Shown one piece after another: positions 1-31,957 of a stretch of DNA of 64,000 nt. Below the pieces are notes generated by a model. That model worked only from the letters and a program-made list of their open reading frames with translations, was not told the DNA's origin and made no database searches. A program made the translations under genes and the position numbers. How positions within the stretch are numbered: the stretch's first letter is position 1; each line of letters opens with the position of its first letter. Origin of the DNA: Fimicolochytrium jonesii (lineage: Eukaryota); assembly GCF_025526975.1 (NCBI RefSeq), contig NW_026515669.1, positions 1 to 64,000 of the forward strand. Reading direction: 5' to 3'.

Positions 1-1056
1 GGTATCGATCTCCCTGCCCTTCCCCTTCCCCCCTTTGGCAGCCTCCCTCTTTTCCTCAGCCCTCTTATGCGCCCATTCCCTCTTTGCCTTCACGGCTTTG
101 TCCTCAGCAAGCGTAAGGTCTATGGCCTTCAGCGGCTTCGACGTTGACGCTGAGGCTTTTGGCTTTGGCTTTGGCCACGACGACGACGACCACAACCTCG
201 TCCACGCCTGCTGGGTCCTCTTCAATTCGATCAGATGTTGACGTTTACGGTATTTGCTCCGCTCCAAAGTACTCAGCAGCTTCCGGAAGTACCGGACCAT
301 CCGAAACTATTTGTCAAAAAGAGAATCAATCATTGTGGAACACAAGCCAAGCTGAAGATTAACGGCTTTTTGAACGTCCCCCTCCCCGGAGACGTCAAAA
401 ACGGCTTTATCTTCAGCTTGGGTAACTGGAATGCGTTGAATGACAAACAAGTACTCACGTCGTCCTTGTTCAGAGTCAGACCCTTTGCATGCCGTTGTTG
501 CATGATGGAGTCTGAGAAGAGGGCGCTGATGTACGTCTCAGCGGCCTCCTGCAGGGCATCGACTGCCTCTTGGTACCAGCGATGCCTTTCAGAGAACGGC
601 GTCGCCTCCGGGGTTGTCGCGATGCTCTGATTGTGAGCCCGGGACACTTCATAGTCGATCTCCTCTATCAACTTCCTGAAGGGCAACTTCAGGATCACCG
701 ACCCATATGTATGGGCATAGTGTTTGATCTCGGCCTCTGCCGACTCGCCCGACCGATATCCGCCCCTTCTTCGTCGCAGAGTCAGCGCCTTCGGGAACGT
801 GGACTTTGGTGGATAACCAACCTGACGTACCAAGCTGAAGATTAGTGCCATTTTGAACCCTCTCCAGACCGGGGACGGCGAAAATCAAGGTTCTCTCAGC
901 TTGTTCAAAACCCACCTTCCAAGTTCCTGTGACATTATCAATTCTAGATTGGGGAATTAATGCAGGTCGATCTGGGCGATTTGGAAGACGGCGTGGAGCA
1001 TCCAAGGCCAGTTTCCTGGCAGAACCGGGCGGGGCAGGGGGTCGTGGGTTGACCAT
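1..1056 (-). CDS. Divergent histone H3-like (CenH3-like) protein with long basic C-terminal extension; 3' end runs off the window
   Basis: Predicted exons 1056-916, 821-459 and 306-<1, joined by phase-0 introns (GTGGGT..CAG 915-822; GTGAGT..TAG 458-307). Spliced protein: tail SARKLALDAPRR; core YRSGESAEAEIKHY..KLPFRKLIEEI..RWYQEAVDALQEAAETYISALFSDS..HAKGLTLNKDD|FRMVRYFR. This aligns with H3 YRPGTVALREIRRY..KLPFQRLVREI..RFQSSAVMALQEA.EAYLVGLFEDT..HAKRVTIMPKDIQLARRIR. Confidence 0.85.
347..421. repeat. Palindromic ~75-bp element, copy 1 (intron 2 of the H3-like gene)
   Basis: Arms ccaagctgaagattaacggctttttgaacgtc and gacgtcaaaaacggctttatcttcagcttgg are near reverse complements. Confidence 0.85.
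831..903. repeat. Palindromic ~73-bp element, copy 2 (intron 1 of the H3-like gene)
   Basis: caagctgaagattag...ttctctcagcttg; same termini and length as copy 1, with a more degenerate interior. Confidence 0.75.
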
Positions 1057-1134
1057 ATTCTGATGTTAATTGAGAAAAGGAAAGAAGAGGCCAACGATCG
1101 GAATATATTCAAAAATGGTATGATATGGAACATA

Positions 1135-2047
1135 TTATTCATCGGCTTCAGCATCCTTGGTCCTCTTCCGGCTATAGTATTCGGCCATTTGCTTCCGCCA
1201 TTCCTTCATCTGCTCCGTATTTTCGAAGATGTCCTCAGCCTCATCGATAACCTCGGACGAAGGGTTACGCATTCCCTCAACAACCGTGTCCTGGAAGGAC
1301 AACCATGGCTGGGAGTAGTCGCCTGGGGAGGGGGCGGTGGCTGCGGCGGTTGCGGTTGGGCCGATTGGCGGTGGCGGAAAGATGGGAGCATCCCATGTCT
1401 GATGGATGCTGTGTGCGATGGAGGCGCCTTTGCAGAGATGGCCAAGGGGGCATAGTGCGGTGTCGTCCCATGCTGGCAACATCCAATCCCTCAGCCTCTC
1501 TGCGTCCAATGGGTGGATCCTCAAGCAATCTGAAAGAAGAACACGGTTATTGTTATTGCCCTTCAACGCAGCAACAAAACAAAGACAAGCTGAGGTTTAT
1601 GCGATTTTTCGACGCGCGCACGCCGGGGACGTCGAAAAACGCATTAACCCTCAGCTTCTCGAGAAGATACAAACCCCCGACCCAATCCTTCCTCAGCATC
1701 ACCCCGTTGACCTGCTTCCCCTCGTGGTAGATGCGCGCCTCTGAATGCACTCGACAGAGGCTGAAGGCCGCCGCCGAGCGGGCACGCCTCTGCAGCGTCC
1801 TGATGTGCCTCGATTGGTCGAGTGACCACCAGTAAAACTCGACCTGGTGGCCATCGACCATGCGGGTAACGATCACTGGGTCGTAGAGGATCCAGAGGTA
1901 ACGGAAGACGGCGATCGTCGTCTCCGTCTCCTCCTGCCCCATCTGCCAGTGCATTTCTGACAGGTCGTACATGGCCATCCCCATATCCCCCTCCCCGTTG
2001 TCGTTGGGTCCCCGTCCCGTCGCCGAAGAAGAAGAAGCCATACTCAC
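1135..2047 (-). CDS. Hypothetical protein, probably two exons (~270 aa)
   Basis: ORFs 1553-2047 and 1135-1566 can be joined by a phase-0 intron ending TTGAAG at ~1561; the donor is uncertain. TATA-like TATATA at ~2331-2337. No recognisable domain. Confidence 0.5.
1586..1657. repeat. Palindromic element, copy 3 (predicted intron of the 1135-2047 gene)
   Basis: aagctgaggtttatgcgatttttcgacg...cgtcgaaaaacgcattaaccctcagctt. Confidence 0.8.
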
Positions 2048-2130: not shown

Positions 2131-2201
2131 AAGCTGAGAATAACGCCGTTTTTCGACGCTTTCCAGCCCTTCTGGTTCAAAAACACAATAATCCTCAGCT
2201 T
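2131..2201. repeat. Palindromic element, copy 4 (directly after a minus-strand GTAAGT donor; probable 5'UTR intron)
   Basis: aagctgagaataacgccgtttttcgacg...ttcaaaaacacaataatcctcagctt; acttac (= GTAAGT) at 2202-2207. Confidence 0.75.
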
Positions 2202-2686
2202 ACTTACAGTGCGTGGCGTTGCAAGGAGAGAAGAGAGACGGGGTGATGTGTGTGTGATGTGTTGAAGATGGCGTAAAAGTGCTGTGGAAAGCATAGGGAA
2301 AACGTGAGGGGGAGCGTCTGCAGGCTGTGTTATATATGACATCCTTTAATTGGGGGAGTGTGTGGAAGCTATTCATGAGGCTAATCTGTTGCCATAAAAA
2401 ATGAAAAATCGATTCCCCTAATCAATTGTTAAGTGTTATCATCAAAATCGAATTCTCTGTTAAATTGCGCGCATTGACGCGTCCATTCATATGGGATCAT
2501 ATGTGGTGTACTATGGGAAGCGTGTACTGTGAAGGCCAGTAACGCAAGACCAGTAACGCTTCTAGTAACGCAGTGTGACTCACACACATCGCGCTCACGC
2601 GCATTTCATTGTACCTACTACTAGGGCTTGTGCCCGCCGCTACGCCGCGGATTTAAATATATTCACAATGTAATAGTCAGAACTAA

Positions 2687-5600
2687 TCACAACAAAACTT
2701 CCTGATAGACTACATTACGGGTGCAATTCTGCAAGTGGGGAGAGGTACGGGGCGTAACTGGGAGCACACGCAATCCTTGAGCAGATGTTGTCCGGGAGAC
2801 AGCAACGTACAGCTGCCCATGGGTGAAAACAGGAGTTGGGAGATAGATTCCCACCCTCGCCAGGGTTTGGCCTTGGGATTTGTTGATGGTCATGGCGAAT
2901 GCTAACTGCACAGGGAATTGGCGTCGCTGTAGTGTGAATGGGAGTATTTTGGTTGCAGGCGCCAATGTAATCCTTGGGATGAACACCACATGACCAACAT
3001 GGGTGCCAGTGATGATCTCAGCTTCAATAACCCTCTGGCCGAGGCGCCGGACTTCCAGCCGGGTGCCATTGCAAAGTCCTGCAGCCTGGTTGAGGTTGCG
3101 GAGGAGGATGATCGGGGCGCCAACCTTAAGCTGCAGACAATGGGCAGGTAATCCAGGGAGGGTGACCGTATTGAGGAACTCGACAGGGTATAAGGCTTCA
3201 TGATTTTCCGGGCACTCCGGGCCGCTTGAAGGGACGGTGTCCGCACTGAAGTATTCTTGAAGGTCTCCTTCCGTTCTGTGCAGCATGGATGTGTTAACAG
3301 CGTGCACATCTTCATTCCTTGGGGACAGAATCGCCCTGTCTGTCCAGTACGTAGGAGATTCCTTTGAAGGCAGGTCACCATAGACATAGTGCAGAAGCCC
3401 GTCCAGAGTTCTGCCAGTCTCTGATAACAACACCTCCTCCGGGAGCAAAATCTAGTCATCCTCATGATCACCTTTCACAGGCTGTGCGGGTATCTTGCCA
3501 TCCCCTATATCCAGAATCCACTGTGGGAATGCTTTGGAAAAATCTGTTTCGTTGGCGTGAGCTGTTGAAGCGATGCGCATGTTTTGCGTCAACGTGAAGA
3601 CCTGGACAGTGTGCCAGAAGTTGGATCGTTGCACACTTGCTCCTACAGTTTCTTCACACCCGCCCTTGTAGATGACAGGGGGAATCTGGCGAAAGTCTCC
3701 CCCAAGCAGAACAACCTTCCCGCCCATAGATGCACTGCACTTGGTGATGTCTTGCAAGGTTCGTGAAACAGCTTCCAAAGCGTGCTTGTGCATCATGGGT
3801 GCCTCGTCCCAGACTATGAGCTCCGCCTCCCTTATCAATTCCGCATGATCAGATCGTGGGGAGATAGAGCAGGTAGATGTTTCCGTCAGGTCGATTGGGA
3901 TCTTAAACCGGGAGTGAGCAGTTCTACCCCCGTCCAGAAGCAGCGCAGCAATTCCTGACGACGCAACAGCAAGAACGATCTTGTTTTGGCTGCGAAGATT
4001 TGCGATGATTGTCTGGTACAGGAATGTCTTGCCAGTGCCCCCACTGCCATTGACAAAGAATATGTTTGGGGCTTTCTGCGTTACGGCGGAGGTGACATCG
4101 TTGAAAATTCTAGTTTGTGCCTCGTTGAGACATGGGATGGCCGTCTCAGCAAAGGCGGCCAGTTGCAGAATGTCGTACAATGTTTCCTCTTGTATCACCC
4201 TTGCAATTCTCCTACCCAGCATGGGTTGTCCTGTGAGTTTCGGGAGGGTTGGGAAGTCGCCAAGGTTCTTGCCGTTGCGTCGCAGTGTGCGATCCAGGTC
4301 AGCCAGAGCTTCATTCTCAATCTCTGGTGCTGTTATGGACCTGAATGCATATCCAGGGAGGAGGCGTATACGGTGTTCAATGTCGTCGCTGAGGTCCATC
4401 AAGAACTCTGCCCAGAGTTTTCCTGGTTGTGATACTTCGTTGAAGAGTAAGATTGCTGCGAAGAGCTCACGCAAACGGGCCCCTGATGCCCATGTGGCAG
4501 CTTCTCGTAAGGCATCAGCCCACTCCCGGTCATCTTGCAGCAGGCCTCTCGCTCGACAGGCATCTTTGAACGTGGAGTAGAGTTGTCCGTGCATACTGCG
4601 GAGATTCTCAAAGGAAGTAGCTCCCGGAACGTTGTTGAGAAGCAAGCGCAGGTAATATCGCTCCCCAGACGTTGGATGGGCAAAGTAAAGCCTGCCAATG
4701 GCAATGCCCTGCTTGCGGGGGTGCCATCTCTTGGCCTGCGCATCCCAGGTGTAATTCTGGGGAAAGTTAGGGTACGTTATGGTGCGATGTGCATTGTCCC
4801 CTTCAGCAGGAGTAGAATTGTAGGTAAACCATTCGGTCAGCGTGGTCTTCGCTGTAGCTGCACGGGCAAGGATGTCGTCTAACTGGTCGTCCTCAGTGAA
4901 GACAACATGGTGCTGCCCCGGTAAGTGCACTTGCAATCGCATCACTGCAGGATGTCGTCCATGCATCGGAAACTTGAACAGATGCCATGAGGCTTCCGCA
5001 GCTGAGACGTATCGTGAGTCAATGAACTGTTCAAGTTCATCAATGGGCTCTGGCGCTGAGGGCTCAGAGGTGTTCTCGGGATCAACACGCCTCTTCTTCT
5101 TCTTTGGGTTGGATGATTGAGAGAGGACCACCGTTGCCTTGTCATGGCCCTTGTATATGTATGTGAACAGGTATTTGACAGCAGTGATCTGGGTACATAT
5201 CTCCACATTGATGTGTGCGTCGTACCTCTCCAGGAGATACTTGTTGTGTGGGACCACCCAAGAGTTGTTGAGTTCAACACCTTGGACCTTCACAGTGCGA
5301 CCATTGTCCCTGCGCCGATACAAAGGGTATCCATTCACGTCGTTTGATGTTTCTTCCCTCAAAACCCTTGGATAGCGCTTTGAACACTTTCCTTCCTCCA
5401 TGCAGGGTGCGTGTGGATTGGCGGGACCACACGGGCCGTGCATCATCAAGGAGGCAACCCTGTGATAGTAGGCAGGAGAAGCGTCAGGTTCCGGTATCTC
5501 TGCGGACACAAATCTGTCCACATCCGCAGGTGTCACTGGTTGAGCATCCTTGTGAAGGGTGATCAAGATGTGTGCATGAGGTAAGCCACGCTTCTGGAAC

Positions 5601-7396
5601 TCGATCGTGTGGATGTCTGCAATGTGTAGACCGAAGATGTTCTTCTTTGTGAGGTCCTCCATCAACTTCTCTTGCTTCATTCGGAAGACCCGTGCGGTAA
5701 GGTCTGGCCTGTCGATATTTGTCTGTCCTTCCAACAGGGCGTCCTTAATTTCAGGCCATTGAGCGTTGCAGGTGAACGTTATCAGCAACGTTGGCTTCCC
5801 ACCCCAGCGTACTATGGCCATGGCATCTTGATAACTCTGCATCATCTGGCGTGGGCTGCCTTGGAAAGAAGAAGGCAGCACAATACGCTTGCCAAGGTTG
5901 GCAATGTTTGTTTCCCCGGATTCAAAGGCATCCTCAAGTCCTTGGTACAGATCAGCCCTTATGGTAGTCTGATTGTTGCGAATCCAGTTCAAGCGTCCCT
6001 GCTCGACAATCGCATAAGCATCCACAATGAATTGTTCCAGAAGTCGTCCACCACGGAGCAGAGCTATTCCATCTGCAACTCGGCGTTGCAACCGGTAGGA
6101 ATAGAACTCCGTAGCGGAAACGGTCCGTCGTTCCTTGCCTTTGCGACCTGGTGTTTTCTCACCCTGGCGGGGGCCAGGGGTTGAGTTTCGGAGAGGAATC
6201 AAGTGGTGCCATCCGTCTTCTCCGTGTGGAAAGAGCAACGGATATTGCAGGGGCATGTAGGCAGGGTGGCGCTCGGAAATCTCTTGTAGACCTCCTCCCT
6301 GCTTCTGAACAATGACTTGTCTTTTGGACACTGCCTCTGCACCATCTCCAACCATGATGGCGGCAACCTCGTCTGCAGTTGGGCAATTGTATCTTCGGCT
6401 GTCTGTTGTGCGCTCCAGAACTATCCTCATGGAGATATCGATGGCAGGATTTTCCGCAAGGATGTTGCGGACGGATCGGTAGACATGTGCGTATGGGTTC
6501 ACCTCATAAAGCATGTGTTGTAGTTCACCGATGATGTTGATGTCTGGTTTCTTTCCATCAAAGTGGCTGGCACGGTTTTCAGCTTCATGTTCTGTGTCGT
6601 AGATGTACATCTGTGCAAAGCGTGGTCGCTTCCCTGTTGCAATCTGTTGTTCGGATGGGAGAAGGCTTCCGATGTGGTGACATATCTGACCATGAACGCG
6701 GAAGGAGTACACTCCTTGGGTGCCGGTGACGCTCAAGTCAATGTCCGCACCAAGAGAGGTCCAAGCCAAGGATGAGTTGTATGAGCGTATGGCTTCCCGA
6801 AACTTCTTTGCGTGTGGTGAATTGGATGTCAGGAGATCACATAATGTTGCGGGAGTCGTCGGGAGTGGTGGTAAGAGGACTGTGCCTCTTTCACAGCAAA
6901 GGGAGAACTTGGGGTGTGCTTTTGAGGATGTCGCACAGCGCTCCAAGATCCACATGTGTGCGCCACAATCGATGCAGACAGTGTCGCAGCTCCCAGCTGA
7001 CCAATAATCGGTAATCAAGGTCGGGCGCAGAGCTGGTGGCAATGGCATGGGTTTTGCTGGTCGCTCTTGTCGCCTTTGACTCTGCAGTTGAGTTTGCCGA
7101 CGTGTGGTGTGTTTGAAGACATCGCTTAAATGTGTGAGGAGGCGATCCATGCATTGCCAGATGTATTTGAGACGTTCCTGTGATAGTGTGGGTGTGGTCG
7201 ATGCCTGTAGACTGGCACGGGCTGCCGCAACAACATCACCACCATGCTGGATCAGAAGTTCTTGCCAAAGGAGGGTGATGCGGTCTTGAACGTTTGAATG
7301 CAGGTGTGGACTTGAGGACACAAGAGTGCGGGCAGAAGAAGGTGTACTGATGAACATGAAGTATTGAATAGAATTGGAAAGAAATACATGGATCAA
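2687..7396 (-). pseudogene. Helitron Rep (HUH-Y2)/PIF1-like helicase with one in-frame stop
   Basis: Motifs [56 protein letters not shown] and [13 protein letters not shown] at 3452-3454 splits the same-frame ORFs 3452-7396 and 2687-3448. Confidence 0.93.
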
Positions 7397-7405
7397 TCTA
7401 ATGCT

Positions 7406-8948
7406 CTACATCAGGTCTAACTGGTATGACATGAAGGCGTCCACATCCAACATCAACTTTTGCGACGCCAGCAGCCTCTCAGTGATGCGGTTCTCATAAA
7501 CCTTCCGCAAGACAGCTGGGAGGACTTCGACCTCAGTTTTATGGACAGTCGCAGATGTCCAGCCGTCTAACTCTTCAGGCATGTAAACCCGGAAGGTGAT
7601 AGCCCCCAGTGGTAAGACGTATTCCCAACCAAGGTGCTTGTCGAAAAACCACATCCCACCATTTTCATCTAACATCTCCCACCCCACCTCACTGTCTACC
7701 CAAGACGGATGTTTGGCCGTGATGACAATGTCCGTGCTTGCCACACTGAGTACACACCTCAGAATGGGACCTGCATCAAATAGGCGACGGAAGTGGAGGG
7801 GGTCCTCATCTGGAGTGCTGTCGATACGTCTCTCGGGAAGGGGGTCAAGCGTCCAGGTTGCGGCAGGCATCTATCAAATGGAATCCAGTCAATGCATTGA
7901 ACAGTTGTAATTCACACAATCATATTTATTTTAGGAGAACTTCACACGTACATGGCCATTATTGTTTGCTTTGATGTAGTCAAGACAGAGACCTCTCGTA
8001 ATATCAGCTAAGTCGGTCTTCTGCTTAGGTTTGAGGGCAAGGGGGGTCTGTTTGAGCAGAACAGCTCCAATCTGGCGAAGCGTGTACCACAGGTCATTGT
8101 CGTTCTCAGCCGCCTTGCAGAGTTCCAGGAGGGATTGGCCAAACTCAGACTTGGGATCGAAGAGTTGCTTGTCCGACATTTCGGAAGACTCGGGAGGTCT
8201 GGGTGGCACTGTTGACAGCTGTATGTTCAGTCGATGAGGCCGCAGGGGTCGCCGCAGTTGTCGGGCTGGATTCAGTGGTGGTCGATGTGGTGATGGTACT
8301 GACAGAGGGCATATGCTGAGTAGTCTTGTTGGAGGGTGCATTGCGACGACGGGTCTTGGCAGGACGGGCAGGTGCGGTGGCAGTGGATGTTGGGCTGGTG
8401 GGAACTTTGCTGACAGGGCGAGGCGGGACAGAAGTTCCTGAAGAGGAGGCTGCAGGATCGGTGGTGGCAGAGAGTTTACGCTTGCGAACAGGCATAGGTC
8501 GGGTAGGCGAGGTAGGAGTAATGGGTGAGGTAGGAGTAATGGGCGAGGTAGGCAGGGTGGAACTATGTCGACGAACAGCATTGGCTTGGTCAGGGGTAAG
8601 CGACGGCGTAGGCATGATGGTGTTGGTGAGGGTGTTGGCAGCAGGATGATGGTCTGGGGTGCGGGGCGGGTTGGTGGTAATAGCAGGATTGGCGCTGGTG
8701 TGGTGATCTTTCGGAACGGGTGTGTTGGCGGATTTGACAGTGTCGGGAACGGTGATGTCAGCACTGTCAACAGTCATTCCGACAGGTGACAGTCGATTGG
8801 GAGGTCGAAGGTGGGCTGTCTGCGGAGGGCGATAGAAGTCTCCTTTGGTGGTAGGAATGGTGGGCGAGGGAGATTTGCATCTTTTGGGCATGGTGGAGGC
8901 TCTATGTGAAGAACAGAAAATATTAGCAAAAATATCCATCATTCGCAT
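7406..8948 (-). CDS. Helitron-borne accessory ORF(s) of unknown function
   Basis: T/P/S-rich ORF (8145-8948), then a helical-looking segment (7931-8200). A GTACGT..TAG intron links it to ORF 7406-7870. A frame change near 8170-8230 is unresolved. Confidence 0.4.
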
Positions 8949-11900
8949 ATGTCAATTCAAACACACACACACACACGTACACACACGCACACAGACAGAA
9001 ACAGACATACCTGGAGGTGTGGGCAATGGAGAGGAAGATGGGTGGGAAGGTGATGTTGGTGGATGTAGAAAGGGAGGGGGGGAAGGTGGAGAGACAGTCT
9101 CCTTTTATACATTTTCAAAGTTATAGTACAGAGGGGGGGGGGGGGGGGGGGTACACTACACACAGGGGAGCTTCATGAAGGGAACTGCTTGGTCAAACTC
9201 CTGTTTGGTCTGCACTGGCTCCAGTGCCTGTGAGAAAAGAGAAAAAGAGTGAAACATGATCAGGATCAAAAAAAAGTTTGCACCAGTCAAAAAAGAGAAA
9301 TTTACCTCAATGTACCCATCAATAGTAGCCACCCACTCCATAAGGGCAGCCCTGACCTGCTGGAGCCGGCGGTAGAGGTCTCTTTTCCACTCAGGGGTTG
9401 GTAAGATAAGGTGAGGCATGGCAAATTGTAGTTGGAAGATGGGATCTTGGATCAAAAAGATGTGATCTGATAGGTAAAGACCTGAGATTGGTGATTGATT
9501 GGGTCATCTGAGGGGCCCAGGGGACGCCCAAAAGGCCCTTTTATAATCAAGTTTTCATCCCCAGATCTCCATCTCTTCTGGGGGAAGAGAAAAAGCAAAT
9601 CTCCATCTCCAAACCAAAAAGGTCACCGGAGAAGAGAGCCACTGACAGTTTCAGTGTCAAACAGCGTGTCAAATTTAATCCAGTCACTCACAACGCGTTT
9701 CATTCATCAGCTGAAGAAGCCCCGCTGCACGCGCCGCACCCGCAGCCGCACCCGCACCCAACAACCACAACTCACCTGACCCGCACGTCAAAAACGGACA
9801 CCTTTTTCAATTAACTATAAGATATACTCTCACTCACTCGACTGCACAGATCTTCTCAGGGCAACCCAGCACAGCCACCCGGACTGTCGGACTTGCAGAG
9901 CTTGCGCCGTCGCCGTTCAACCCAGCTTCTCCCAACACCACCATTGCAGACATCATTGCCACGGAATTCAACACCAGACACATACAACCCCTCCGCCGGC
10001 CACAGCAGCCTTCCCAAGTGGCTGGACTTCGCCTCCCCACTCTCCTTTTCGCTTTTGACTTACTCTGGACTTGGCAATCAGCATGCAAAGGTATGTCATG
10101 GCTGTCCCGCGGGCATTCCTACACCCCATCGTCGGCATGGCCACGTTCCCCGAGCCTGCTCCATGTACCAGTGAGCTGGGAGTATGTTACAGAACAAGAC
10201 TGACTCTTCCTTTGCCTCTAAATACCCACAGACAAAAACCCGGGCCCAACGGGGGCAAAGGGCTCGCCAGAATCAACTATCCTGCACGCTGGAAGCATGG
10301 AAAACACTACATTCCCGGTTGCATTGGCTGTCGGAAACACAGTTCCTCGAAGTTTCAGCGAATCTCAAAGGATGCTTACGTGACGCTGATGGAATATGGT
10401 TATTATCCAATGATGGGGGTTGGGGCATATGAGCCATATGCGTGCAAAGCGTGCGTTGAAAACTGGAGGAGGATGAGCTGGATGACGACGGCAAGTGGAG
10501 GAGCGCAGAGACAGAGAGCTGATGGATCTGGGGCAGCGGAGGGGGTGGATGATGATCTTTACGTGCGGGTGGACGATATGGACGTGGAGAACCCTTCTTT
10601 CGAGGTTATCCAGAACCCCGACGAGGAGTTGAGGCAGCCTTGTTTGCGGCAGCCTCCTCCCGTTGGGGGGGATGAGGAATATGGACGGAAGCTGATGCTC
10701 TTTGTGCAACGGCCGTACAAAGGGCAAGCATTGGAACCGGAGGCAGCAGAGGACGTGATCATGTATATGGATGCAGAATGTGATGGGCTTTTTGCTGCGA
10801 CGGCAAAACAGCTGCAGAAGCCAGTGGAGCGCTTGCACATCCGTGACAAAGCGGCAATCATCTTCCTTATTTGCTACAAGGCAGCGCTGATTGATCCAAA
10901 GGTACGTCAGTCTTTTCCAGTATTATCCACACCATCCACACCGCTGACACTTACGCATTTATCATGTGCAGGTCTTGTTTGTTAAGGACTATTGGTCGCA
11001 ACACCTCAACAAAGCCAACGTCTCGCATTTGTTGAAGAAGCTGTTCTCCCGCTTCAACCTTACCTATCACCCGTCAAAGGAAAAGGCGCGTCTGAATAAA
11101 ACCATTGAGATGTCGTTTGCACAGCTGTCGCAGGACGTAAAGACCACAATGGGAACAATCGTCTTCAAGGTTGACGACTACAACTGGTTGCATTGTACCC
11201 CGCTGCCAGCTGCTGCAAACAGCAAACTGCGCACACAACGGCAATCATTGCTCTCAAAATTCACGGTGCAGTGCCGCCGCCTCCTTCGACCATCGCTGTG
11301 GGTTTCACTGACCATATCCTTGAGCATTGTCACGACTGGATGCGCTCTGCGTTGAAAACTTCAACGCTTTCCGATTCGCTGATTTATCAGATACGAGATG
11401 CGAGTCTCAAGCCGAGAGCACGATACTTTGAGATCCGACAGCATGTGGCAGCTAGCAAGCGGTACGTTGTATACAACACAATATTTGCTCTCCAATTCTA
11501 AAGCTGTTGTTGGTCTAGGATGTACAACTGGTCCGTTGCCACCAAAGCGGGTTCCCTGAAGGGCTTTCGCACTGTTGCCTCACTCGAGAACAACATGAAG
11601 AAGGAAACGGATATGAATCAGATCTTGGAGCGCATCGCTCATTTTGTGGAGACAACAGGGTATGATGGGAACGTGTTCCTTGTTGGTGACTTCTATGTCT
11701 GGAAGAATGCCATGAAATCGTATTATGCCGGCAATATCTTGGCAAACCGCATCATCATAATGCCCGACGCTCTGCACATTGCAGTGGATGCGCAGGAAGC
11801 CCTGATGCGGCATGCATTTGAGGTACGTGAGCTTGTCGCCTCCATTATCACGCTCTTTGCTCAACTGTTCTCCATGTAGGTGCTCCACCAGGTTTGGGAG

Positions 11901-12026: not shown

Positions 12027-12565
12027 TGTTATGGACGACGCGCCCATACCATAAGCTTACCTACTGACAGCCGCCAATGTCAACCGCCAAATGTCAAACG
12101 CCAATGTCAATGTCAATGTCAGTGTCAATGTCAGTGTCAATGTCAATGTCAATGCCACTCTCCCTCTCTCCCCTCATTTCGCCAATCCTCCCGCAATATC
12201 GCCACTCCTCCTCTCTCCTCTCATTTCGCCAATCCCCCCTCGGCTTCTCCACACCCCCCACTACTTCCCCATAGCCAGCAGCTGTAGCAATGCTCTCTAC
12301 GCTCGCCACGCACGCTCTAGGAGCATAGCTGGCGCCCCCCCAGTCCCCTCTTGTTGTTGTTGTTCTCTGATCTGCTGGGTTGCCTATCTATAAATAGCCG
12401 GCCTCTCTTCGTCCATTCCCTTCCTCCCCAGCAGATCAACACCAGTTCTTCTCATCTCCTGTTCTAGTCCTTGTTTCTTGTTTCGCCAATACAATCTCTT
12501 GTCGCCTATCACTCTCGCCCTGTCTTCTCTACTTTGCTTCCGCCTCCGTCGTCGAGATCATAACA
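12027..12565 (+). repeat. 5' LTR of element A
   Basis: TGTTATGG..CATAACA; (TGTCAA/TGTCAG)n tract ~12077-12153; TATAAATA at 12389-12396. Confidence 0.97.
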
Positions 12566-13550
12566 GTTTGATCTGCTCCAACACTGCGAAGTTCAGAACC
12601 CGTCCAGCCCTGCACCCGACAAACCTTTTCGCCATGTCCCAACCCGAATCCATACCTTTCACCGCCAAGCAATGGAACGATATGTGCCAAGCGATCGCCG
12701 CCTTGCAAAGCCAAAACGCCAACTTGCAGGCCAACCTCGCGCAAGCCCAAGCCGACGCACAAGCTGCCCAGAGCATCGCCGCCCAGGTTCAAGCCGATAC
12801 GTACACCCGTTTCCAAGTCACCAACCCTGCTCTGGAGCCAAGAATCAGCTCGCCCGAGAAGTTTGATGGTACCCGCAGCAAATTCCGTGGGTGGTTGAAC
12901 AACATCCGGTTGATGTTTGCTCTCCAGCCCAACCGCTACCCCATGTTATGAATGGGCGGAGCCGATGGAAATAGAGGCGACTTGTGGTGCAGGTTGTTGA
13001 CAGGTAATGGTATTCAGACCGAAACAAGAACTAGAACAAGACTAGGAAGAACTGGTGTTGATCTGCTGGGGGATCAGGAAGTGGGGAGCTCAGGGGAGGC
13101 GGCTATTTATGTTTTTCTGGGAAGGCTGGGGAAGCGTGGGGAAGCAGAAGGGTACGGAATGAGAGGGAAGCCAAGAGAAGCGCCAAGGGTGGGGGAAGCA
13201 TAGAAACAGAAGACTGGGGATGGGGTGGCTACGCCGAGGCTGTGGGCGGGTACGTGGGGAAGTATGGAAACAGAAGACTGGGGATGGGGTGGCTACGCTG
13301 AGGCTGTGGGCGGGTACGTGGGGAAGTATGGAGAAGGGTTTGTAAGCGCCGAGTGTTGGGAGGTGTGGCTACGTGCGGCTGCGTGGAGAAATGAAGGCAG
13401 TGGCAGGTGTGGGGTAGCGCGGCTGCGTGCGGCTGCGAGGTTTGGCAGATGTCAGGTTTTGACAGGGAATTGACATTGACTGACTGTTGGGATGCTGTCA
13501 TGAGGTAAGCGCATGGTATGGACGCGTCGTCCATAACATCACCCCCTCCT

Positions 13551-16500
13551 TTAGCCACGGCGTCCGGATGTTGTTTTGATGTTGGCAGGCTTTGGTCGGG
13601 GTTTGTCGGGGTACTTTTGGTGGAACTGGGCAACAAGCTCTTGACATCGGGCAAGGTGTTCCACTGGCTCCCATGTGTTCTCCGAGCTTGGCCAACCCTG
13701 CCACTTGATGAGGTACTTAAGGTGCGTGCGTCGAATACGGGAGTCAAGAATGTCTTCCACAATCCATTCCTCCTGTCCTTCGACTTCTTCTGGTGGGGTG
13801 GGTTCTGGCTCAGTTCGCTCCGGAATGGTGAAACGTGGTTCAAGAAGGGAGACATGGAAGACGTTGTGAATTTTGTAGGATGGGGGAAGCTTGAGGTGAT
13901 ATGTGACCGAGTTGATCTTCTCCGTGATTGTGAAGGGGCCAATCTTACGGTGATCAAGTTTCTGGGAAGGTCGGAGAGTCTTGAGATTCCGCTGTAAGAG
14001 CCAGACACTGTCCCCGGGTTTCATGTCTGGGCCAGGTGCCCTCTTAGCATCGGCAAAGCGCTTCATGCGTCCTTGGGCCTCCTTGAGCTCAGTGGCAAGC
14101 TGTTCATGGATTTCCTTGAGATGGTTGGCACGAGCTTCGGCTGCAGGATTAAGGGATTCGGTTGTGGTGGCGGAAGCCAGACTGAATCGAGGATGGAACC
14201 CATAGTTGGCATAGAAGGGGGTTGTCTGGGTGGCGGAGTGGATGGTGTTATTGTAAGAGAACTCAGCAGAAGACAAGAGTTCCTTCCAGTTATCTTGTTG
14301 ATAGTTGCAAAAGCAGCGAAGGTATTGCTCAAGAATCTGATTGGTCCGCTCGGTTTGTCCATCGCTCTGGGGATGGAACGCCGATGAGAGGTTGACCTTG
14401 GTTCCCAGGAGAGCGAAGAGACGTTTCCAGAAGTGGGAGTTGAACTGTGGGCCACGGTCAGATACAATATCGTCGGGGAGTCCATGGAGCCGGATGACAT
14501 GGTGCCAGATCAGATCTGCAGTTGACTCAGCGGTGGCAGTTTTCCTGCACGGTACAAAGTGCGCCATCTTGGTGAACCGGCAGATGACAACGAGCACAGA
14601 ATCAACCCCATCACTGGCGGGTAGATCCGTGATGAAGTCCATGGAAATTGACCCCCAGGGGCGGTCAGGGACCTGCAGGGGTTGGAGGAGACCGTAGGGC
14701 TTGTGTCTGCTGGTCTTGGCTTGAGCACATACGTCGCAGGACCTGATGTAGGACTTGACAAAACGCCACTGGCTGGGCCACCAGTAGTTGCGTGAGATGA
14801 GCTCCAGGGTCTTTGACATGCCGTAGTGTCCTGCCAAACGCGTGTCATGCATGTCCCGGCAGATCTCAGCACGGAGCTTGTTGGTGGGGACGTAGACAAG
14901 GTTGTCGTACAGCAGAACCCCATTTTCCTCGGAGAATCGCTTTATCCGTTCTTGGTCTTCTTGAGATTGCTGGGCAATGGGGGCCCTAAGCTGTCGCCGG
15001 ATGGTTTGCGCAAACACATCGGATGCCAGGGCAGCTTTGATTTGGTCAAGGAGTGAGGAGTCCAGTGGGGTCAGATAAGTGGCGGCCAGGCGGAGATGGT
15101 CAGGGGTGAGGATCGTGGTTTCCTGGGAGCGGAATGCTTCTTCCCCCTCCCTTAGCTCGTATTCAGAGCGACGAGAGAGGGCAGTCAGCTTGGTGTTGCT
15201 GGGTACCAGGGGCGGTATGTGATGACAAAGTCGAAATCAGCAAAGAAGATTGACCAGCGGGATTGGCGGCGGTTGAGGGTACGGGTAGTCATGAAGTACT
15301 GGAGGTTCTTGTGGTCACAGTAAACGATGACCTTGTGGCGGGCACCAATGAGGTGGTGTCGCCATTGAGCAAATGAGTCTTGGATAGCCAGGAGTTCCTT
15401 GTCGTAGATCTCATAGTTGATTTCCTCAGGAGTAAATTTGCGGGAGTGAAAGGCCACGGGGTGGAGTTGATCTGTGTCATCGGGTTGAAGGAGGACGGCG
15501 CCAAGGGCAAAGTCGGAGGCATCGGATTCGACAATGAAGGGCTTGTCAGGGTCGGGGTGAGTCAGGATAGGTGCGGAGGTGAAGGCTTTCTTGAGGGTTT
15601 CAAAAGCTAGGTGTGCAGCGTGGGTCCATTTGAATGGCAAGTCTTTGCGAGTGAGCGTGGTCAGGGGTGCAACGATCGCAGAGTACCCTTTGATGAATCG
15701 CCGGTAGAAGTTGGCAAAACCAAGGAAGCGCTGGATGCCTTTGACATTCGTCGGGGGTTCCCATTCGGTAATGGCAGCCGTCTTCTTTGGGTCCATGGAA
15801 ATGCCTTGCTGGGAGATGATAAACCCCAGGAACTCAACAGAGTCACGGTTGAATTCGCATTTTTCCGGTTTCGCATACAGCCCGTGCTGGCGGAGTCGTG
15901 AGAGCACCTCTCGGACGTGGTTGGGGTGGTCTTCTGGGTTTTTTGAGAAGATCAGAATGTCGTCAAGGTAGACCACAACAAAAACGTCGAGAATGTCACG
16001 GAATATGTCGTTCATGAGGTGTTGGAATACTCCAGGGGCATTGGTGAGCCCAAACGGCATGACATTATACTCGAATAGGCCGTAGCGACATCGGAACGCT
16101 GTCTTCCATTCATCCCCTGGCCGGATCCGAAGAAGGTTGTAGGCTCCCCGGAGGTCAATCTTGGTGAGCCGGCGTGCCCCTCGAAGACGATCCATGATGC
16201 TGTTAATCAAGGGCAAGGGATAGCGATTCTTGATGGTGATATTGTTGAGTCCACGATAGTCGACGCACAGACGGAGGGAACCGTCCTTTTTCTTGACAAA
16301 GAGGACTGGGGCACCGGCGGGAGACTTGGAGTGCTTGATGAACCCCTTAGCTAGGTTCTCTTCAAGGTAGTCACAGAGTGCCTGCATTTCAGGCTCGCTG
16401 AGACTATAGATCGGGCCGAACGGTGGCTGTTTGCCCTCTTCTAAGTCGATGGGACAGTCGTAGGGTCGGTGCTCTGGGAGGGTATCCGCGTTCTTCTTGG

Positions 16501-17407
16501 CGAAGACGTCCGCAAAATCTTGGTATTCTTCAGGAATGATGGCCTTCGGATCTTTTGGAGGAGTGGTCGCCAGGGCTTGGGAATCTGACTTGGTCGGATT
16601 GGCGTAGGCAATGAATGCCTGGTCATGCCTTGCCGCCACACGGAAAGCTGGGGCGCTGATAAACGATACGTGGATCGGTGTGGGTGCTGGGTCCAGTGTG
16701 TTGGGTGTCTGGGCTAGGGAGACTGAAATCTCGTCTTGATGGATACGGATCAGAGGTTCAGGGGTTTTTGAGGGCTTCGGGCTAGGTTCTGTTGGCAGGG
16801 CATCCCAGGAGGCGTATTGTCCAAAACCGCAATGGCAGCGGACGCAAAGAGTGCGAGTCTTCCAGTGTAGCTCCACATCATGGAGCTCAAACCAGGGAAG
16901 CCCCAGGATGATTGGCGCATGCGGGGAACATGTCACATGGAATACCACCTCCTCAAAATGGTCGTTGACCCACATGCCCAAAGGTTGGGTGTGATGGGTA
17001 ATGGAGCCCGCATGGCTGGGACGTCCGTCAACCAGTTCAAGCGCAATGGGGTCCTCCTTCTTGACAAGTGGGATGCGGTGCTTGCGGGCATAACTTTCGT
17101 CGATGAAGCACGACATCGCACCGGTGTCGAGTAGTGCTGAAAGCTGAACTGGAGCTCGCTGGGCCGATATCTGCAGGGTAACAGGGTACTCGAATGGTGA
17201 GGATGGGCCCAAAGTCCGCATGGGTGAGGGTATCTCAGATAGGAGATTGACATTGTTGGTGGTCAGGAGAAGGGTGTTGCTGGAGATGCCAGGATCGGAG
17301 CAAGGTTTTGTGGCTTCTCCCTTGGCAGTACTTGCGTGGTGAGAAGGCCCAGGACAGGTGTTGCCCAGCTGCTCGGCCTTTACTGCAGCTGGACTTGGGC
17401 AAAATCC
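13551..17407 (-). pseudogene. pol: Element B pol (protease, RT, RNase H, integrase, chromodomain)
   Basis: LLDTGA, YLDD, ESDASDFA, HDTRLAGH..CDVC, DFITDLP/SDRG/ERTNQ, WIVEDILDSR..YLIKWQGW..NTWEP; one frameshift near 15190-15210. Confidence 0.95.
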
Positions 17408-18309
17408 TGGATGGGTGCAGGTTCCTTAACCGCGACATTCGCCGTGCGTATCTTGTTCGGGCAGAGTTTGGCTATGTGGCCGGGTTTACCACAGTAGAGG
17501 CAAAGTTTGTTTGTGATGCGGTGTTGGCGCTCTAGCGGTGTGAGGGGTCCTCGCGGACGAGCAGCGTCAATGATCATAGGGTCGTCTGGGCGGTTGTCGG
17601 GGCTCATGAGGGTGGGGCTAGTGGTAACTGGCACATATGGCTGTCGGTTCCTGCTTCGCTCTAGACGGCGCTCAAACAATCGGTTGTCACATTGGATGGC
17701 CTGTTCCATCACGGTGTCGATTGAGGCGGTAGGGGGCATCGTGAGCATTAAGTCCTTGACGTCTTCTTTGAGGCCGCGACGGAAGGTGGCAATCAATGCC
17801 TGGTCATTCCACGACACATCGCATTGCAGCTGTTCGGAATTCAGCTACATACTCTGTTGCTGCACGGGTTTGTCGAAGGTTCTGGAGCTTGTTTTCGGAC
17901 TGTGCGGATCCTGTCGCTGTCTCCAAAGACTGCTTGCATTTGCTGGATGAAATCATCCAGGTTCGTAAGGGAATGATGGTCTTGTTCGACAAGGGGCGCC
18001 AGCCAGGCCTGGGCGGTGCCAGTGAGGTAGGTGCCAATAGAGTCGTATCTTGGTCTGATCGTTGGGGTAGCGCCTGGGTTGGAGGGCGAACATGAGCCGG
18101 ATCTGGTTGAGGAACCCACGGAACTTGCTTCGGGTGCCATCAAATTTGTCTGGGAGACTGATTTTGGGTTCGGGGGCGTGAGTGGCAGGGGCAGTGGTCT
18201 GGGTTTGCGCTAGTTCGGCTTGTAGGGTGGTATTCTGTGCTCGAAGTTCGTCAATCGCATTGCACATGGCTTGCCAGGCTTCGGCCGTGAGGGGAAGGGC
18301 GTCGGACAT
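17380..18309 (-). pseudogene. gag: Element B gag (frameshifted)
   Basis: PDKFDGTRSKFRGF and CLYCGKPGHIAKLC; spread over several frames. Confidence 0.9.
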
Positions 18310-19621
18310 GGTGATTTGGCGTGGAGGTACAGCGGCTGGGGGTTGTTGAGCAGATCAAACTGTTATGAATGGGCGGAGCCGACGGAAATAGAGGCGACTT
18401 GTGGTGCAGGTTGTTGACAGGTAATGGTATTCAGACCGAAACAAGAACTAGAACAAGACTAGGAAGAACTGGTGTTGATCTGCTGGGGGATCAGGAAGTG
18501 GGGAGCTCAGGGGAGGCGGCTATTTATGTTTTTCTGGGAAGGCTGGGGAAGCGTGGGGAAGCAGAAGGGTACGGAATGAGAGGGAAGCCAAGAGAAGCGC
18601 CAAGGGTGGGGGAAGCATAGAAACAGAAGACTGGGGATGGGGTGGCTACGCCGAGGCTGTGGGCGGGTACGTGGGGAAGTATGGAAACAGAAGACTGGGG
18701 ATGGGGTGGCTACGCTGAGGCTGTGGGCGGGTACGTGGGGAAGTATGGAGAAGGGTTTGTAAGCGCCGAGTGTTGGGAGGTGTGGCTACGTGCGGCTGCG
18801 TGGAGAAATGAAGGCAGTGGCAGGTGTGGGGTAGCGCGGCTGCATGCGGCTGCGAGGTTTGGCAGATGTCAGGTTTTGACAGGGAATTGACATTGACTGA
18901 CTGTTGGGATGCTGTCATGAGGTAAGCGCATGGTATGGACGCGTCGTCCATAACACCCCAGCGACATCATCAAGATCCAAACTATTGGAACCTACCTCAC
19001 CGGCACTGCGCAAGCCTGGATGGCGCCCCTAGTCGAACGCCAAGATCACAGCCTTCAGGACTTCGATAGTTTTATCAGCCAGATGCAATCGGTCTTCGGA
19101 GACAGCGACAGGGTCCGCACCTCTGAAAACAAGCTCCAGAACCTTCGCCAAACCCGTGCAGCAACCGAGTACGTTGCTGAGTTCCGCCAGCTACAATGCG
19201 ATGTCTCCTGGAACGACCAGGCCCTGATTGCTACCTTCCACCGTGGCCTCAAAGAAGACGTCAAAGACCTGATGCTCACGATGCCCCCTGCGGCCACCAT
19301 TGATGTGGTGATGGAGCAGGCTATCCAGTGCGATAACCGGCTGTTTGAGCGCCGCCTGGAGCGAAACAGAAGCCGCCAGACCTTCCCGGTTCCCCATACC
19401 TCGTTTACTACTACCACCACTGTCGACCACAGCGAGCCTATGCAGATTGATGCCGCTCGTCCCCGCGGCCCTCTGAGCCCTCAGGAACGCCAACGCCGCA
19501 TTTCCAACAACCTCTGCCTTTACTGCGGTGGCGCGGGGCACATTGCAAAAGTCTGCCCCGTCAAGAACAAGACCACCACCCGAGCCGCCAACGTCGACAT
19601 CAAAGAACCCTCCACCGAACA

Positions 19622-22600
19622 GGGTTTTCCCAAAGTCCAGCCGCAGTAAAGCCCCAGCGACTGGACAACACACACCGCCCCGGGCCTCCTAACCTCGCAG
19701 CTCCTGCAACGGGAGAGGCCACCCCCCTGGTTCCCGACTCCGTTATAGCCAACACAACCCTCCTAGCCGCTGCCCATGTCGAAAACTCCGAAATTAACCC
19801 CCGCGCCATGCTTGCGCTGGGTCCCCTCAAACCCTTCAACTACCCCGTTACCATCATGGTATCATCCAGCCGCGCCCCGGTACCTACCTCAGCCATGATC
19901 GACAATGGTGCCCTGTCCTGCTTCATCGACACAGACTTTGCCCGCAAACACCGCATCGCCCTAGTCCCGCATCAGCGTCCACTGACGATCGAACTCGTTG
20001 ACGGTCAACCCAGCTCTGCTGTGCCAATCACCCATCACACCCAACCAGTAGGCATGTGGGTCGACGACCACTTCGAAGAACTCGTCTTCCATGTCACCAA
20101 ATCACCCCATGCTCCAATCCTCCTTGGTCTCCCCTGGCTCCGCCTTCACGACATTAACCTTGACTTCAAGAACCTTTCGGTCGGTTTCCGTTGCGACTGT
20201 CTGTATCATGAATTCGCAAATTGGGACAACTCTCCAGCACCCCCGAGCCCAGCACCCGCCAGAACCCCCGAGCCCTTGATCCGCATCCCCCAGGATGAAG
20301 TCCCCGTCGACGAAACATGGTCGATTCCAGTACCCAAGGTATCTCGCTCCAGCACCCCAGAACCGGCTCCCACGCCGCTCCAAGTCTCGTTCATCTCCGC
20401 CCCAGCCTTCCGGGTCGCAGCAAGGCATGACCAGGTCTTTGTCGCCTACGCCAACCCTGCGAAACCCAATCTCCCGGCCTCGCCTAGCCCCAGTAAACCC
20501 CCGACACCCGAGAAAGACATCAAAGACTTCCTGCCCCCCGAGTATCGAGACTTCGCCGACGTTTTCGAAAAGAGAAATGCTGACACTCTCCCCGAGCACC
20601 GGCCCTACGACTGTCCAATCGATCTGGAAGAAGGCAAGCAGCCACCTTTCGGCCCGATCTACAGCCTCAGCGAACCAGAAACTGAAGGCACTCTGCGAAT
20701 ACCTCGAAGAAAACCTCGCCAAAGGATTCATCAAACCCTCAAAGTCCCCTGCCGGTGCGCCAGTCTTATTCGTGAAAAAAAAGGACGGTTCTCTCCGCCT
20801 CTGCGTCGATTATCGAGGCCTGAACAGCATCACGGTGAAGAATCGCTACCCCCTGCCCCTGATCAACGGTATCATGGATTGTTTGCGCGGCGCCCGCCGT
20901 CTCACCAAGATCGACCTCCGCGGCGCTTATAACCTCTTACGCATGCGCCTGGGCGATGAATGGAAGACCGCCTTCCGCTGCCGCTACGGCCTATTCGAAT
21001 ACAATGTCATGCCCTTTGGACTCAGCAATGCTCCTGGCGTCTCCCAGTACCTGATGAACGACATCTTCCGCGACATTCTCGATGTGTTTGTTGTCGTCTA
21101 CCTCGACGATATCCTGATATTCTCCAAGAACCCCGAAGATCACCCCAAACATGTCCGCGAAGTCTTGTCCTGCCTCCGACAGCATGGGTTGTACGCCAAA
21201 CCCGAGAAGTGCGAATTCAACCGCGAATCCGTTGAGTTCCTAGGCTTCATCATCTCCAAGAAAGGCATCCAGATGGACCCCAAGAAGATCGCTGCCATCA
21301 CGGATTGGGAACCTCCCAAGAATGTCAAAGGCGTCCAGCGGTTCCTCGGCTTTGCCAACTTCTATCGCCGATTCATCCAAGGCTATTCCAAGATCGCTAC
21401 CCCGCTCACAGCCCTGACCCGGAAAGACATCCCGTACGCCTGGACACCCGCCGCAAACACCGCCTTCGAGAACCTGAAGAAAGCATTCACCACCGCCCCC
21501 ATCCTTGCTCACCCTGACCCAGAGAAGCCCTTCGTCGTCGAAACTGACGCCTCCGACTTCGCTCTTGGCGCAGTTCTCCTCCAACCTGACCAGGACAATC
21601 AGCTCCACCCCTGTGGCCTTCCACTCTCGCAAATTCACGGCCGAAGAGATCAACTACGAGATCTACGACAAGGAACTTCTGGCCATCCAAGACTCCTTTG
21701 CCCAGTGGCGCCACCATCTCATTGGCGCCCGTCACAAGATCACCGTTTACTCCGACCACAAAAACCTTCAGTACTTCATGACCACCCGCACCCTGAACCG
21801 CCGCCAAGCCCGCTGGTCGATATTCTTCTCGGATTTTGACTTTGTCATTACCTATCGCCCCGGTTCCCAGCAGCACCAAGCCGATGCCCTCTCCCGACGC
21901 TCCGAACATGAGCTAAAAGAGGGGGAAGAAGCGTTCCGCTCCCAGGCAACCACAATTTTGACTCCCGAACGCCTTCGACTCGCGGCTGCCTACCTCACAC
22001 CCATGGATACCACGCTGCTTGACAAGATTAAGGCCGCCCAGGCCTCTGATCCCCCTCGCTAAGACCATTCGCGAAAAGCTCAAGATACCCCTCGCCCAAC
22101 GAACTGAGGAAACCCAAGATCGTATCAAGCGGTTCTCAGATGAAGATGGGATCCTGCTGCACGATAACCTGGTCTATGTCCCCACCAACGAGCTCCGAGC
22201 TGAAGTCTGCCACGACATGCACGATACTCCCCTAGCCGGCCACTTTGGGATGTCCAAGACGCTCGAACTCGCCTCCCGCAACTACTGGTGGCCCAGCCAG
22301 TGGCGCTTCGTCAAGGCCTACGTCAAGTCCTGCGATACCTGTAGCCAAGCGAAATCCAGTCGACACAAACCATACGGCCTACTCCAGCCCAACAGTATCC
22401 CTACCCGCCCTTGGGGATCTTGGTCCCTGGACTTTATCACCGGTCTGCCTCCCGTGGACGGGTACGACTCCATCCTGAACGTCAACTGTCGCCTCACCAA
22501 GATGGCCCACTTCATCGCCTGCAGCGAGTCAGAATCCGCCGAATCCACCGCCGACCTAGTCTTCCACAACATCATCCGTCTCCACGGCCTCCCCGACGAC

Positions 22601-23536
22601 GTCATCTCTGACCGAGGACCCCAGTTGAAGTCCCGGTTCTGGCGTCGACTTCTCGAACTCCTTGGGGCAAAAGCCAACCTCTCCTCGGCCTTCCACCCCC
22701 AGAGCGATGGCCAGACGGAACGCACCAACCAGATCCTGGAGCAGTATCTCCGATGCTTTTGCAACCACCAACAGGACAACTGGAAACAGCTTCTGTCGTC
22801 CGCCGAGTTTGCCTACAACAACACCCATCAGTCCGCCTCCCAGACCACCCCCTTCTACGCCAACAAGGGTCTCCACCCCCGCTTCAGTTTCGCGGCCTCT
22901 GCTACCTCCGAATCCGTCAACCCCGCCGCTGAAGCCCGCGCTAAACAAATCAGGGAAGTCCATGAACAGCTCGCCCTCGAGCTCAAGGAAGCCCAAGATC
23001 AAATGAAGCGCTACGCCGACGCCAAACGAATTCCTGGACCGGACTTCAAGCCTGGCGACCACGTCTGGCTCCTCCGCAAAAACCTCCAGACAACCCGGCC
23101 CTCTCAGAAACTCGACCATCGCAAGATTGGGCCATTCCCCATCGTTGAAAAAATCAATCCCGTCGCCTACCGGCTCAAGCTCCCGCCTACGAACAAAATC
23201 CACGATGTCTTCCATGTCTCGCTCCTCGAACCCCGCTTCACCATCCCCGAACGACACGAACCCGAACCCGCGCCCCCAGAGACCGTTGAGGGTCAAGAAG
23301 AGTGGATTGTCAAAGCCATCCTTGACTCCCGCATCCATCGTCGTCGCCTTCAGTACTTGGTCAAATGGCAGGGCTGGCCTGACTCTGAGAACACCTGGGA
23401 GCCCGTGGAACACCTCACCCATACCGATGCACTCCTCCAGGACTTCCACAGCGCGTACCCCAACAAGCCTTCCTCTGTCCCTGTAGCGCCTCCTCTGCGG
23501 CCACACCAAACTCGGCACCGCCGCCGCCGCCGCTAA
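19622..23536 (+). pseudogene. pol: Element A pol (protease, RT, RNase H, integrase, chromodomain)
   Basis: [25 protein letters not shown] core and chromodomain; frameshifts near 20680, 21610 and 22050. Confidence 0.95.
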
Positions 23537-31410: not shown

Positions 31411-31957
31411 GCTGGCGGGGTTTGACGGCAAAAGGGAAACCCAGAGGGAGCATCGACTGACAGCACTCGCGACGCGCTCTGGGTGGCTATGCTGGGTTGC
31501 CCTGAGCAGATCTTAGAACAAAACAGGCTAAGCGCACACCCTGTTCACAACATTGCACTCTCATTTTGCATCAACAATTGACCTAATTCATCGCTCTCGA
31601 CACAGGTACGTCAAAATCTGGTCTCCAGGGTGATTTCTGTCGTAAGAACGGAAAGGGGATTCACCGGGAGCCGCTCTCGCGAGCGGCAACCGGTTTGGGT
31701 TTTCACCCAGCGCATCTAGCCGCAGAAAACCAGGAGACCTTGAATTCTGCTTCCGATGCCTCTAAGTCCTCCCCGCCGGCCCCATCGGTTTTATCCGTTA
31801 TCTCTACCACAATCTACCCTAGCATCGTCGATCCTGGTTTTTAGCCAGTGTATGCGGACCTGATGGTGTGGCATCAACTGAATTTATGAAGTCTTATACC
31901 AAGAAAATGTGACGGGGCAGAGACATTGAATGGGAAACCGTCCAGTCTTTCCACCAA

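Follow-up and report, generated by a model that had tools for sequence, protein, structure and literature searches.

Does the H3-like gene at the edge of a 64,000-nt stretch of the Fimicolochytrium jonesii genome (the window) encode an unusual CenH3 of the host, or a histone carried by a mobile element? Both readings had been offered in the original prediction. The copies of the gene, its partner gene and the CpG skew of the differences among copies fit a mobile-element origin; an unusual host CenH3 fits poorly, with a profile score of 87 bits. The reading that we prefer, with a probability of roughly 0.55, is that the gene is cargo of a dispersed mobile element and that its protein may pair with H4 and help the element to resist silencing. 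The two parts of this reading differ in strength. Carriage by a mobile element is likely, because at least five near-identical copies lie on five contigs and the same orphan gene stands beside three of them, from which we infer that the unit is mobile; the chromatin role as stated is a tentative proposal, which we hold to be less likely than not.

Gene models at the window edge

Two annotated F. jonesii proteins, P0007 from the H3-like gene and P0010 from the neighbouring partner gene, are reproduced exactly from the window DNA (Table 1). The H3-like gene runs past the window edge at position 1. Predicted splicing out of 915-822 and 458-307, both bounded by GT..AG, leaves 270 codons free of stops. 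It was to these two introns that the original prediction attributed the absence of the gene from the list of open reading frames. The intron 2 junction is also used in the public model P0007, while intron 1 and exon 1 are absent from that model, which starts at ATG 851 inside the proposed intron 1. P0007 also splices out a 65-nt intron (272-208) whose GTACTT donor is weak, and its product of 176 residues does not include the basic tail. Exon 1 and the basic C-terminal tail are thus given here as predicted features. The predicted exon 1 is favoured because the 78 nt before ATG 1056 end like an intron acceptor, with 20 of 24 pyrimidines, TTAAC, and CAG at 1062-1060.

As first described, the frame remains open past helix 3 to the window edge and is rich in Lys and Arg: 102 codons of exon 3 are free of stops, with 29 K/R against 11 D/E. 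An open frame of this length was retained in 62 of 5000 base shuffles. The short remnant of the H3 tail that had been recognized in the N-terminal region does not withstand comparison, as its best local alignment score to the H3 tail was reached by 35% of 5000 shuffles and is at chance level. None of the motifs ARTK, ARKS and GVKK occurs in the predicted N-terminal tail.

Table 1
Features of the two-gene unit and of the adjacent Helitron in the window.
Feature	Position	Strand	Description
Exon 3, H3-like gene	1..306	-	Helix 3 and basic extension of at least 93 residues; open at window edge
Intron 2, H3-like gene	307..458	-	152 nt; GTGAGT..TAG; contains a palindrome
Palindrome copy 1	349..419	.	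71 nt; in intron 2 of the H3-like gene
Exon 2, H3-like gene	459..821	-	H3-type fold from helix N through helices 1 and 2 to loop 2, with a 25-residue loop 1; PF00125
Predicted intron 1, H3-like gene	822..915	-	94 nt; GTGGGT..CAG; CTAAT branch site; contains a palindrome
Palindrome copy 2	832..902	.	71 nt; in intron 1 of the H3-like gene; weakest fold, z -1.4
Predicted exon 1, H3-like gene	916..1056	-	47 codons; Pro-rich tail
Gap between partner and H3-like genes	1057..1134	-	78 nt; resembles an intron 3' end before ATG 1056
Partner gene	1135..2041	-	253 residues; exons 2041-1675 and 1529-1135
Palindrome copy 3	1587..1657	.	71 nt; in partner gene coding intron 1674-1530
Palindrome copy 4	2131..2201	.	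71 nt; in partner gene predicted 5' UTR intron 2207-2078
Three direct 10-nt repeats	2536..2571	-	Between Helitron end and predicted partner start
Neighbouring Helitron	2621..9822	-	5' end A/TC; 3' end hairpin and CTAG/T; Rep-helicase

Histone fold and diagnostic residues

The histone fold that had been proposed is real. The exon 2 region matches PF00125 with an E value of 6.6e-13 (9e-14 in a second profile search), and the fold comprises helix N and helices 1-3. In the ESM Atlas, histone clusters were found at 0.88-0.92 for P0003. Single-sequence AlphaFold models were of low confidence, with pLDDT values of 40.7 for P0007 and 41.9 for the partner domain. The expansion of loop 1 also holds (25 residues versus eight in H3), and a loop of at least 24 residues is present in 11 of the 148 outside matches used for comparison.

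Alignment to canonical H3 (P0141, taken from the search matches) reproduces the three substitutions Q68R, F84W and T107S, which the original prediction took as CenH3 diagnostics; they are three of about 60 changes. Arg is found at position 68 in 6% of the 148 matches and Trp at position 84 in 49%, and only W84 of the three is a common CenH3-type residue. Thr107 is retained in Cnp1 and is Ser in the H3-like protein; that this is the diagnostic threonine was an assumption of the original prediction, which took its number to be 107. The available text of PMC4359364 numbers the diagnostic threonine 118, and the threonine at position 118 is kept in the H3-like protein and in 148/148 matches. The features by which CenH3 is recognized in the accessible parts of PMC4359364 and bioRxiv 10.1101/706580 are that Q68 and F84 are missing, that loop 1 is long and that the tail has diverged; according to the accessible part of PMC2995078, a CenH3 need not have a long loop 1. 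The H3-like protein has Arg and Trp in place of Q68 and F84, a longer loop 1 and a divergent N-terminal tail, the tail being predicted.

The columns that make up the core of the fold (those shared by roughly 90% of the matches or more) are kept at 20 of 25 positions, compared with 15 of 58 other columns (p = 7e-6). This contrast argues for long-lasting purifying selection on the fold in the past.

A co-model with H4, one of the checks suggested at the outset, gave an ipSAE of 0.80, compared with 0.01 for the best control, with contact agreement of at least 77% between runs and a partner pLDDT of at least 65. Such a mark is attained by 51 of 78 solved and two of 108 mismatched microbial pairs, and among eukaryotes by 71 of 105 and two of 126, respectively. 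Because H3 and H4 form a solved pair known from textbooks, the score speaks for likeness to H3 and not for binding. At 12 sites that we take to be the basic DNA-facing positions of H3, the H3-like protein keeps five basic residues, compared with at least seven in all 142 complete matches. The fold carries 15 basic and 16 acidic residues versus 17 and 10 in H3, and residues 110-112, presumably near the H3-H3 contact, are QQR.

Relationship to H3 and CenH3

The fold is 35% identical to H3, a value equal to the lowest among the 148 matches (median 70%). It is at most 41% identical to any of these matches, which come from a search of 1.84 billion representatives, and no close relative from outside F. 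jonesii was found among them; the best outside matches are ordinary H3s and CenH3-like proteins. In a weak search of longer proteins, none of 493 candidates scored. The search of the representatives had returned 149 matches, of which one was dropped as too short before counting; merging identical rows left 143 for tree building. Sorted by their features, the matches comprise 48 H3-like, 61 CenH3-like and 39 mixed proteins, and profiles were built from the first two classes with the diagnostic sites left out.

The H3-like protein scores 63 bits with the H3-like profile and 87 bits with the CenH3-like profile. When each of the 61 CenH3-like matches was scored in leave-one-out fashion with its own profile, the lowest value was 138 bits and the median 250 bits, so that the query falls below all of them. 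The lean of 24 bits towards the CenH3-like profile exceeds that of uniformly mutated H3 (0.4% of 500), but it is equalled by divergent H3-type matches (for example P0052, +25) and is therefore not specific. A search of the PDB with exon 2 only ended in a tie (38.3 bits for Cnp1 versus 37-40 bits for H3), whereas a control CenH3-like match prefers Cnp1 by 20 bits.

The phylogeny called for by the original prediction unites the five copies in a single clade with a long branch and without a well-supported sister, in an alignment of 83 columns that gives weak resolution. P0029 was considered as a sister (FastTree support 0.88) and was dropped, as IQ-TREE gives no starred sister and the path length is 1.58. 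Grouping with CenH3 was thus found neither in the 83-column tree nor by PDB similarity or profile score, with matches labelled by their features. CenH3 ancestry is possible, as W84, the long loop and the 24-bit lean would suggest; a working host CenH3 is unlikely.

Copies and the partner gene

The H3-like gene is represented by five records on five contigs (814,245, 72,465, 690,402, 1,787,891 and 2,155,284 nt) with 92-100% identity; exon 2 is identical to P0007 and 92-93% identical to the four paralogs. Copies were counted among annotated proteins, in which broken copies and synonymous changes are invisible, and five is hence a lower bound. Three records exist for the partner gene, each with an accession adjacent to that of the H3-like copy on its contig (KAI8819535/6, KAI8824524/5 and KAI8825557/6). 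Because the accession numbers adjoin on three contigs, the two genes have been duplicated together on at least three occasions, adjacency being read from the accession numbering. The other two of the five H3-like copies have no recorded partner.

The partner protein matches no family in Pfam, PHROG, the PDB or the ESM Atlas. A likeness to SUMO that had been guessed by eye found no support. No related locus was found for the histone in metagenome or viral contigs, or for the partner in viral contigs. An origin of the H3-like gene from a giant virus was considered and set aside, as the gene has no viral match. In the accessible text of PMC13533422 a lone capsid gene is reported for F. jonesii and a histone is not mentioned, and those of PMC12730594 and PMC12130899 do not mention chytrids. 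Our literature search found no description of the present gene family.

Changes among the copies

Among the H3-like copies, eight of 16 transition-type changes fall at CpG, compared with an expectation of 31/228 (p = 5e-4); in the partner gene the corresponding values are seven of 12 and 65/484 (p = 3e-4). In exon 2, 18 of 242 codons differ, compared with eight of 98 in read-through intron or off-frame sequence (p = 0.82). Purifying selection among homologues, the absence of which was to count against the gene if the predicted splicing were absent too, is accordingly not seen among the copies, in a protein-level comparison of low power that takes the palindrome region as its neutral standard. 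Because the changes are skewed to CpG and exon 2 is as variable as the read-through and off-frame sequence, recent drift of the copies under CpG methylation seems probable. CpG, however, is not depleted in the unit (observed/expected ratio 0.92-0.93). For F. jonesii, 6mA is reported in the available part of PMC11258239.

The window copy carries R116G at a site that is kept in 98% of the matches and in all four paralogs, and the four paralogs share L65S. Each copy may be impaired because of these substitutions.

Palindromes in the introns

Each predicted intron of both genes contains one 71-nt palindrome (four of four). A scan of the window gave these four exact matches, all in the two-gene unit and none elsewhere, and two matches with two mismatches that were judged to be chance. 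The palindrome consists of two head-to-head 28-nt arms in which the first seven bases are invariant and a T-run occupies positions 19-23; the middles of the arms vary and are mostly unpaired. The copies share 39-49 of 71 bases without gaps. Invariant positions account for 14 of 14 at the ends and 14 of 57 inside (p = 2e-7, a value inflated by the use of the ends in finding the copies). The palindrome of intron 2 is also present at two other loci, as judged from read-through in the paralog models.

In its sequence features the palindrome resembles a two-part DNA-binding site more than it does a stem in RNA; an old MITE is a reasonable alternative. An introner or MITE would be expected to span the whole intron, or to show a target duplication and many copies. 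The intron flanks are instead variable, at 6-39 and 10-57 nt, and no target duplication was seen by eye at the palindromes. The pattern has no match in viral sequences and one in metagenomes (an AT-rich, bacterial-looking contig), which was judged to be chance, and it matches no Rfam family and no tRNA.

Genomic surroundings

The two-gene unit lies at the edge of a 30-kb nest of transposons. No transposase, terminal repeat or target duplication belonging to the unit was seen in the window, off the edge of which the gene runs. The neighbouring Helitron appears to be complete (7.2 kb, with Rep and PIF1 domains), and its end motifs agree with what we take to be the consensus. Its two or three accessory open reading frames (7870-7406, 8891-8145 and 8179-7931) belong to no known family, and exact look-up of the Helitron open reading frames matched a record for none of ten. 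This copy of the unit was rejected as cargo of the Helitron, as it lies beyond the Helitron 3' end, which is 580 nt upstream of the partner ATG. The three 10-nt repeats in the interval are possible promoter or subterminal sites.

Further along, an inverted-repeat element (9848-31513) is delimited by 36-nt inverted repeats at 9848-9883 and 31478-31513 that are 92% complementary. These bracket a broken set of open reading frames with a Cys-rich N-terminal part, which is interrupted by LTR retrotransposons at 12027. The set has no Pfam match below an E value of 0.01, and a motif in it recalls what we take to be transposases of the Kyakuja-Dileera-Zisupton type. Region 12027-29476 holds nested Ty3/Gypsy-like elements in both orientations with chromodomain-like integrase ends, and within it a 2814-nt unit occurs three times at 99% identity, possibly through recent tandem amplification or as an effect of assembly. 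A class C GPCR-like gene follows on the minus strand (32368-37600; 7tm_3, E value 9e-12), in which a bacterial Ig-like domain and a Cys-rich repeat precede the membrane part. Ordinary-looking host genes occupy 45640-61684, namely those for an enoyl-CoA hydratase, a beta-eliminating lyase and an ABCC-type transporter, the last identified by eye.

Alternative explanations

The drift of the copies raises the possibility that the cargo is dead: a captured and amplified histone gene that is now decaying and is unmade or inert, with palindromes that are old miniature inverted-repeat insertions surviving in introns. The CpG-skewed and apparently neutral differences would fit, as would R116G, L65S and P66S, which strike conserved positions in particular copies; in Mycosphaerellaceae most of the H3-like copies have been inactivated according to the available text of PMC6710886. 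However, long selection after the gene's split from H3 or CenH3 is implied by a divergence of about 65% from H3 with the core kept, by a 17-residue insertion that preserves the frame and by the intact introns, and the palindromes are of exact length with the (inflated) conservation of their ends and no target duplication by eye. We regard death of the cargo as possible, with the odds well against it. The gene could instead be a lineage-specific host H3 variant, for example one that packs zoospore chromatin through its basic tail, which was multiplied with its neighbour by segmental duplication. Its spliceosomal introns, intact fold and strongly basic extension are what such a variant might have, and it is positioned outside the Helitron ends. 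A host variant is improbable, given that no ortholog was found in other species, that the copies drift with a CpG skew, and that the unit departs from the other genes of the window in its 78-nt gene spacing and in having palindromes of its own.

Least probable of these explanations is that the gene works as the CenH3 of the host after unusual remodelling and a recent multiplication. CenH3 duplications do occur, as the accessible part of PMC7463522 describes, and the replaced Q68 and F84, the long loop 1, the divergent tail and the 24-bit lean outside the diagnostic sites would all be accommodated. The fold, however, is at the bottom of the 148 matches in identity to H3, its profile score is below those of all CenH3-like matches, and the lean recurs in divergent H3-type matches. 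It lacks both the preference for Cnp1 that the control has and a supported sister in the tree; basic residues facing the DNA that every complete match retains are lost, and purifying selection among the copies is not seen.

Comparison with known systems

H3-like genes amplified by transposons are known, and the chytrid case is far more remodelled, with introns, palindromes and a predicted tail. Most such genes described from Dothideomycetes are either dead or little changed from H3, and an action on chromatin is left open in the available text of PMC3538342. The same text describes the hAT-borne H3L of Pyrenophora tritici-repentis, with TIRs, a hAT transposase, 26 copies and ESTs; H3L groups near true H3 in that of PMC6710886. 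The F. jonesii unit resembles H3L in its dispersed, near-identical copies beside an open reading frame of unknown function, in being neither H3 nor CenH3 and in the proposed effect on chromatin. It differs in its chytrid host, 35% identity to H3, 25-residue loop 1, predicted basic C-terminal extension, palindrome-bearing introns and the lack of a visible transposase. The hAT-captured H3-like sequences of Pseudocercospora fijiensis share repeat-borne amplification, and some copies there have a 16-residue insertion; in that species and its relatives, however, the accessible part of PMC6710886 describes hundreds of intronless retrocopies destroyed by RIP, whereas the five visible chytrid copies have introns and open frames.

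With CenH3/CENP-A the protein shares the missing Q68, Trp for F84, the long loop 1, a divergent N-terminal tail and a C-terminal tail that lacks conservation. It differs from CenH3/CENP-A in a much lower conservation of the fold, the absence of grouping with CenH3-like matches, dispersed and drifting copies, missing basic residues at DNA-facing sites and a predicted C-terminal extension of great length. As a working analogy only, Arabidopsis VANDAL/VANC likewise combines an accessory protein with element-specific noncoding motifs (accessible text of PMC10398659). VANC is a non-histone with tandem-repeat motifs in that source, whereas the chytrid motifs are head-to-head palindromes and putative binding sites.

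Proposed model and implications

In the preferred reading, a dispersed mobile element would carry the two-gene unit. Both genes may be expressed from a single promoter near 2.3 kb through alternative splicing, and the H3-like protein would be made and loaded with host H4. The resulting nucleosomes would be expected to be loosely wrapped and to be without the usual modification sites of H3. Contact with DNA could be supplied by the basic tail or by the partner protein, perhaps at the palindromes, which might serve as binding sites for an element-encoded protein, and the altered nucleosomes could then help the element to resist silencing. A more specific version, which we consider speculative, is an element chromatin kit in which a palindrome-recognizing partner loads a possibly CenH3-derived H3 as a decoy histone on the DNA of the element. 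If true, this would be sequence-specific anti-silencing, or hijacking of centromere chromatin, by a transposon-encoded histone.

Long selection on the fold together with the loss of DNA-facing residues and tail motifs is the look expected of a functional selfish histone, and the chytrid family offers a concrete pair of proteins and a defined DNA motif. A multi-copy, repeat-borne gene can show the sequence features by which CenH3 is usually recognized, a caution for surveys that record the loss of CenH3 in early-diverging fungi. If the H3-like gene is mobile cargo, an element might be able to change its own chromatin through it.
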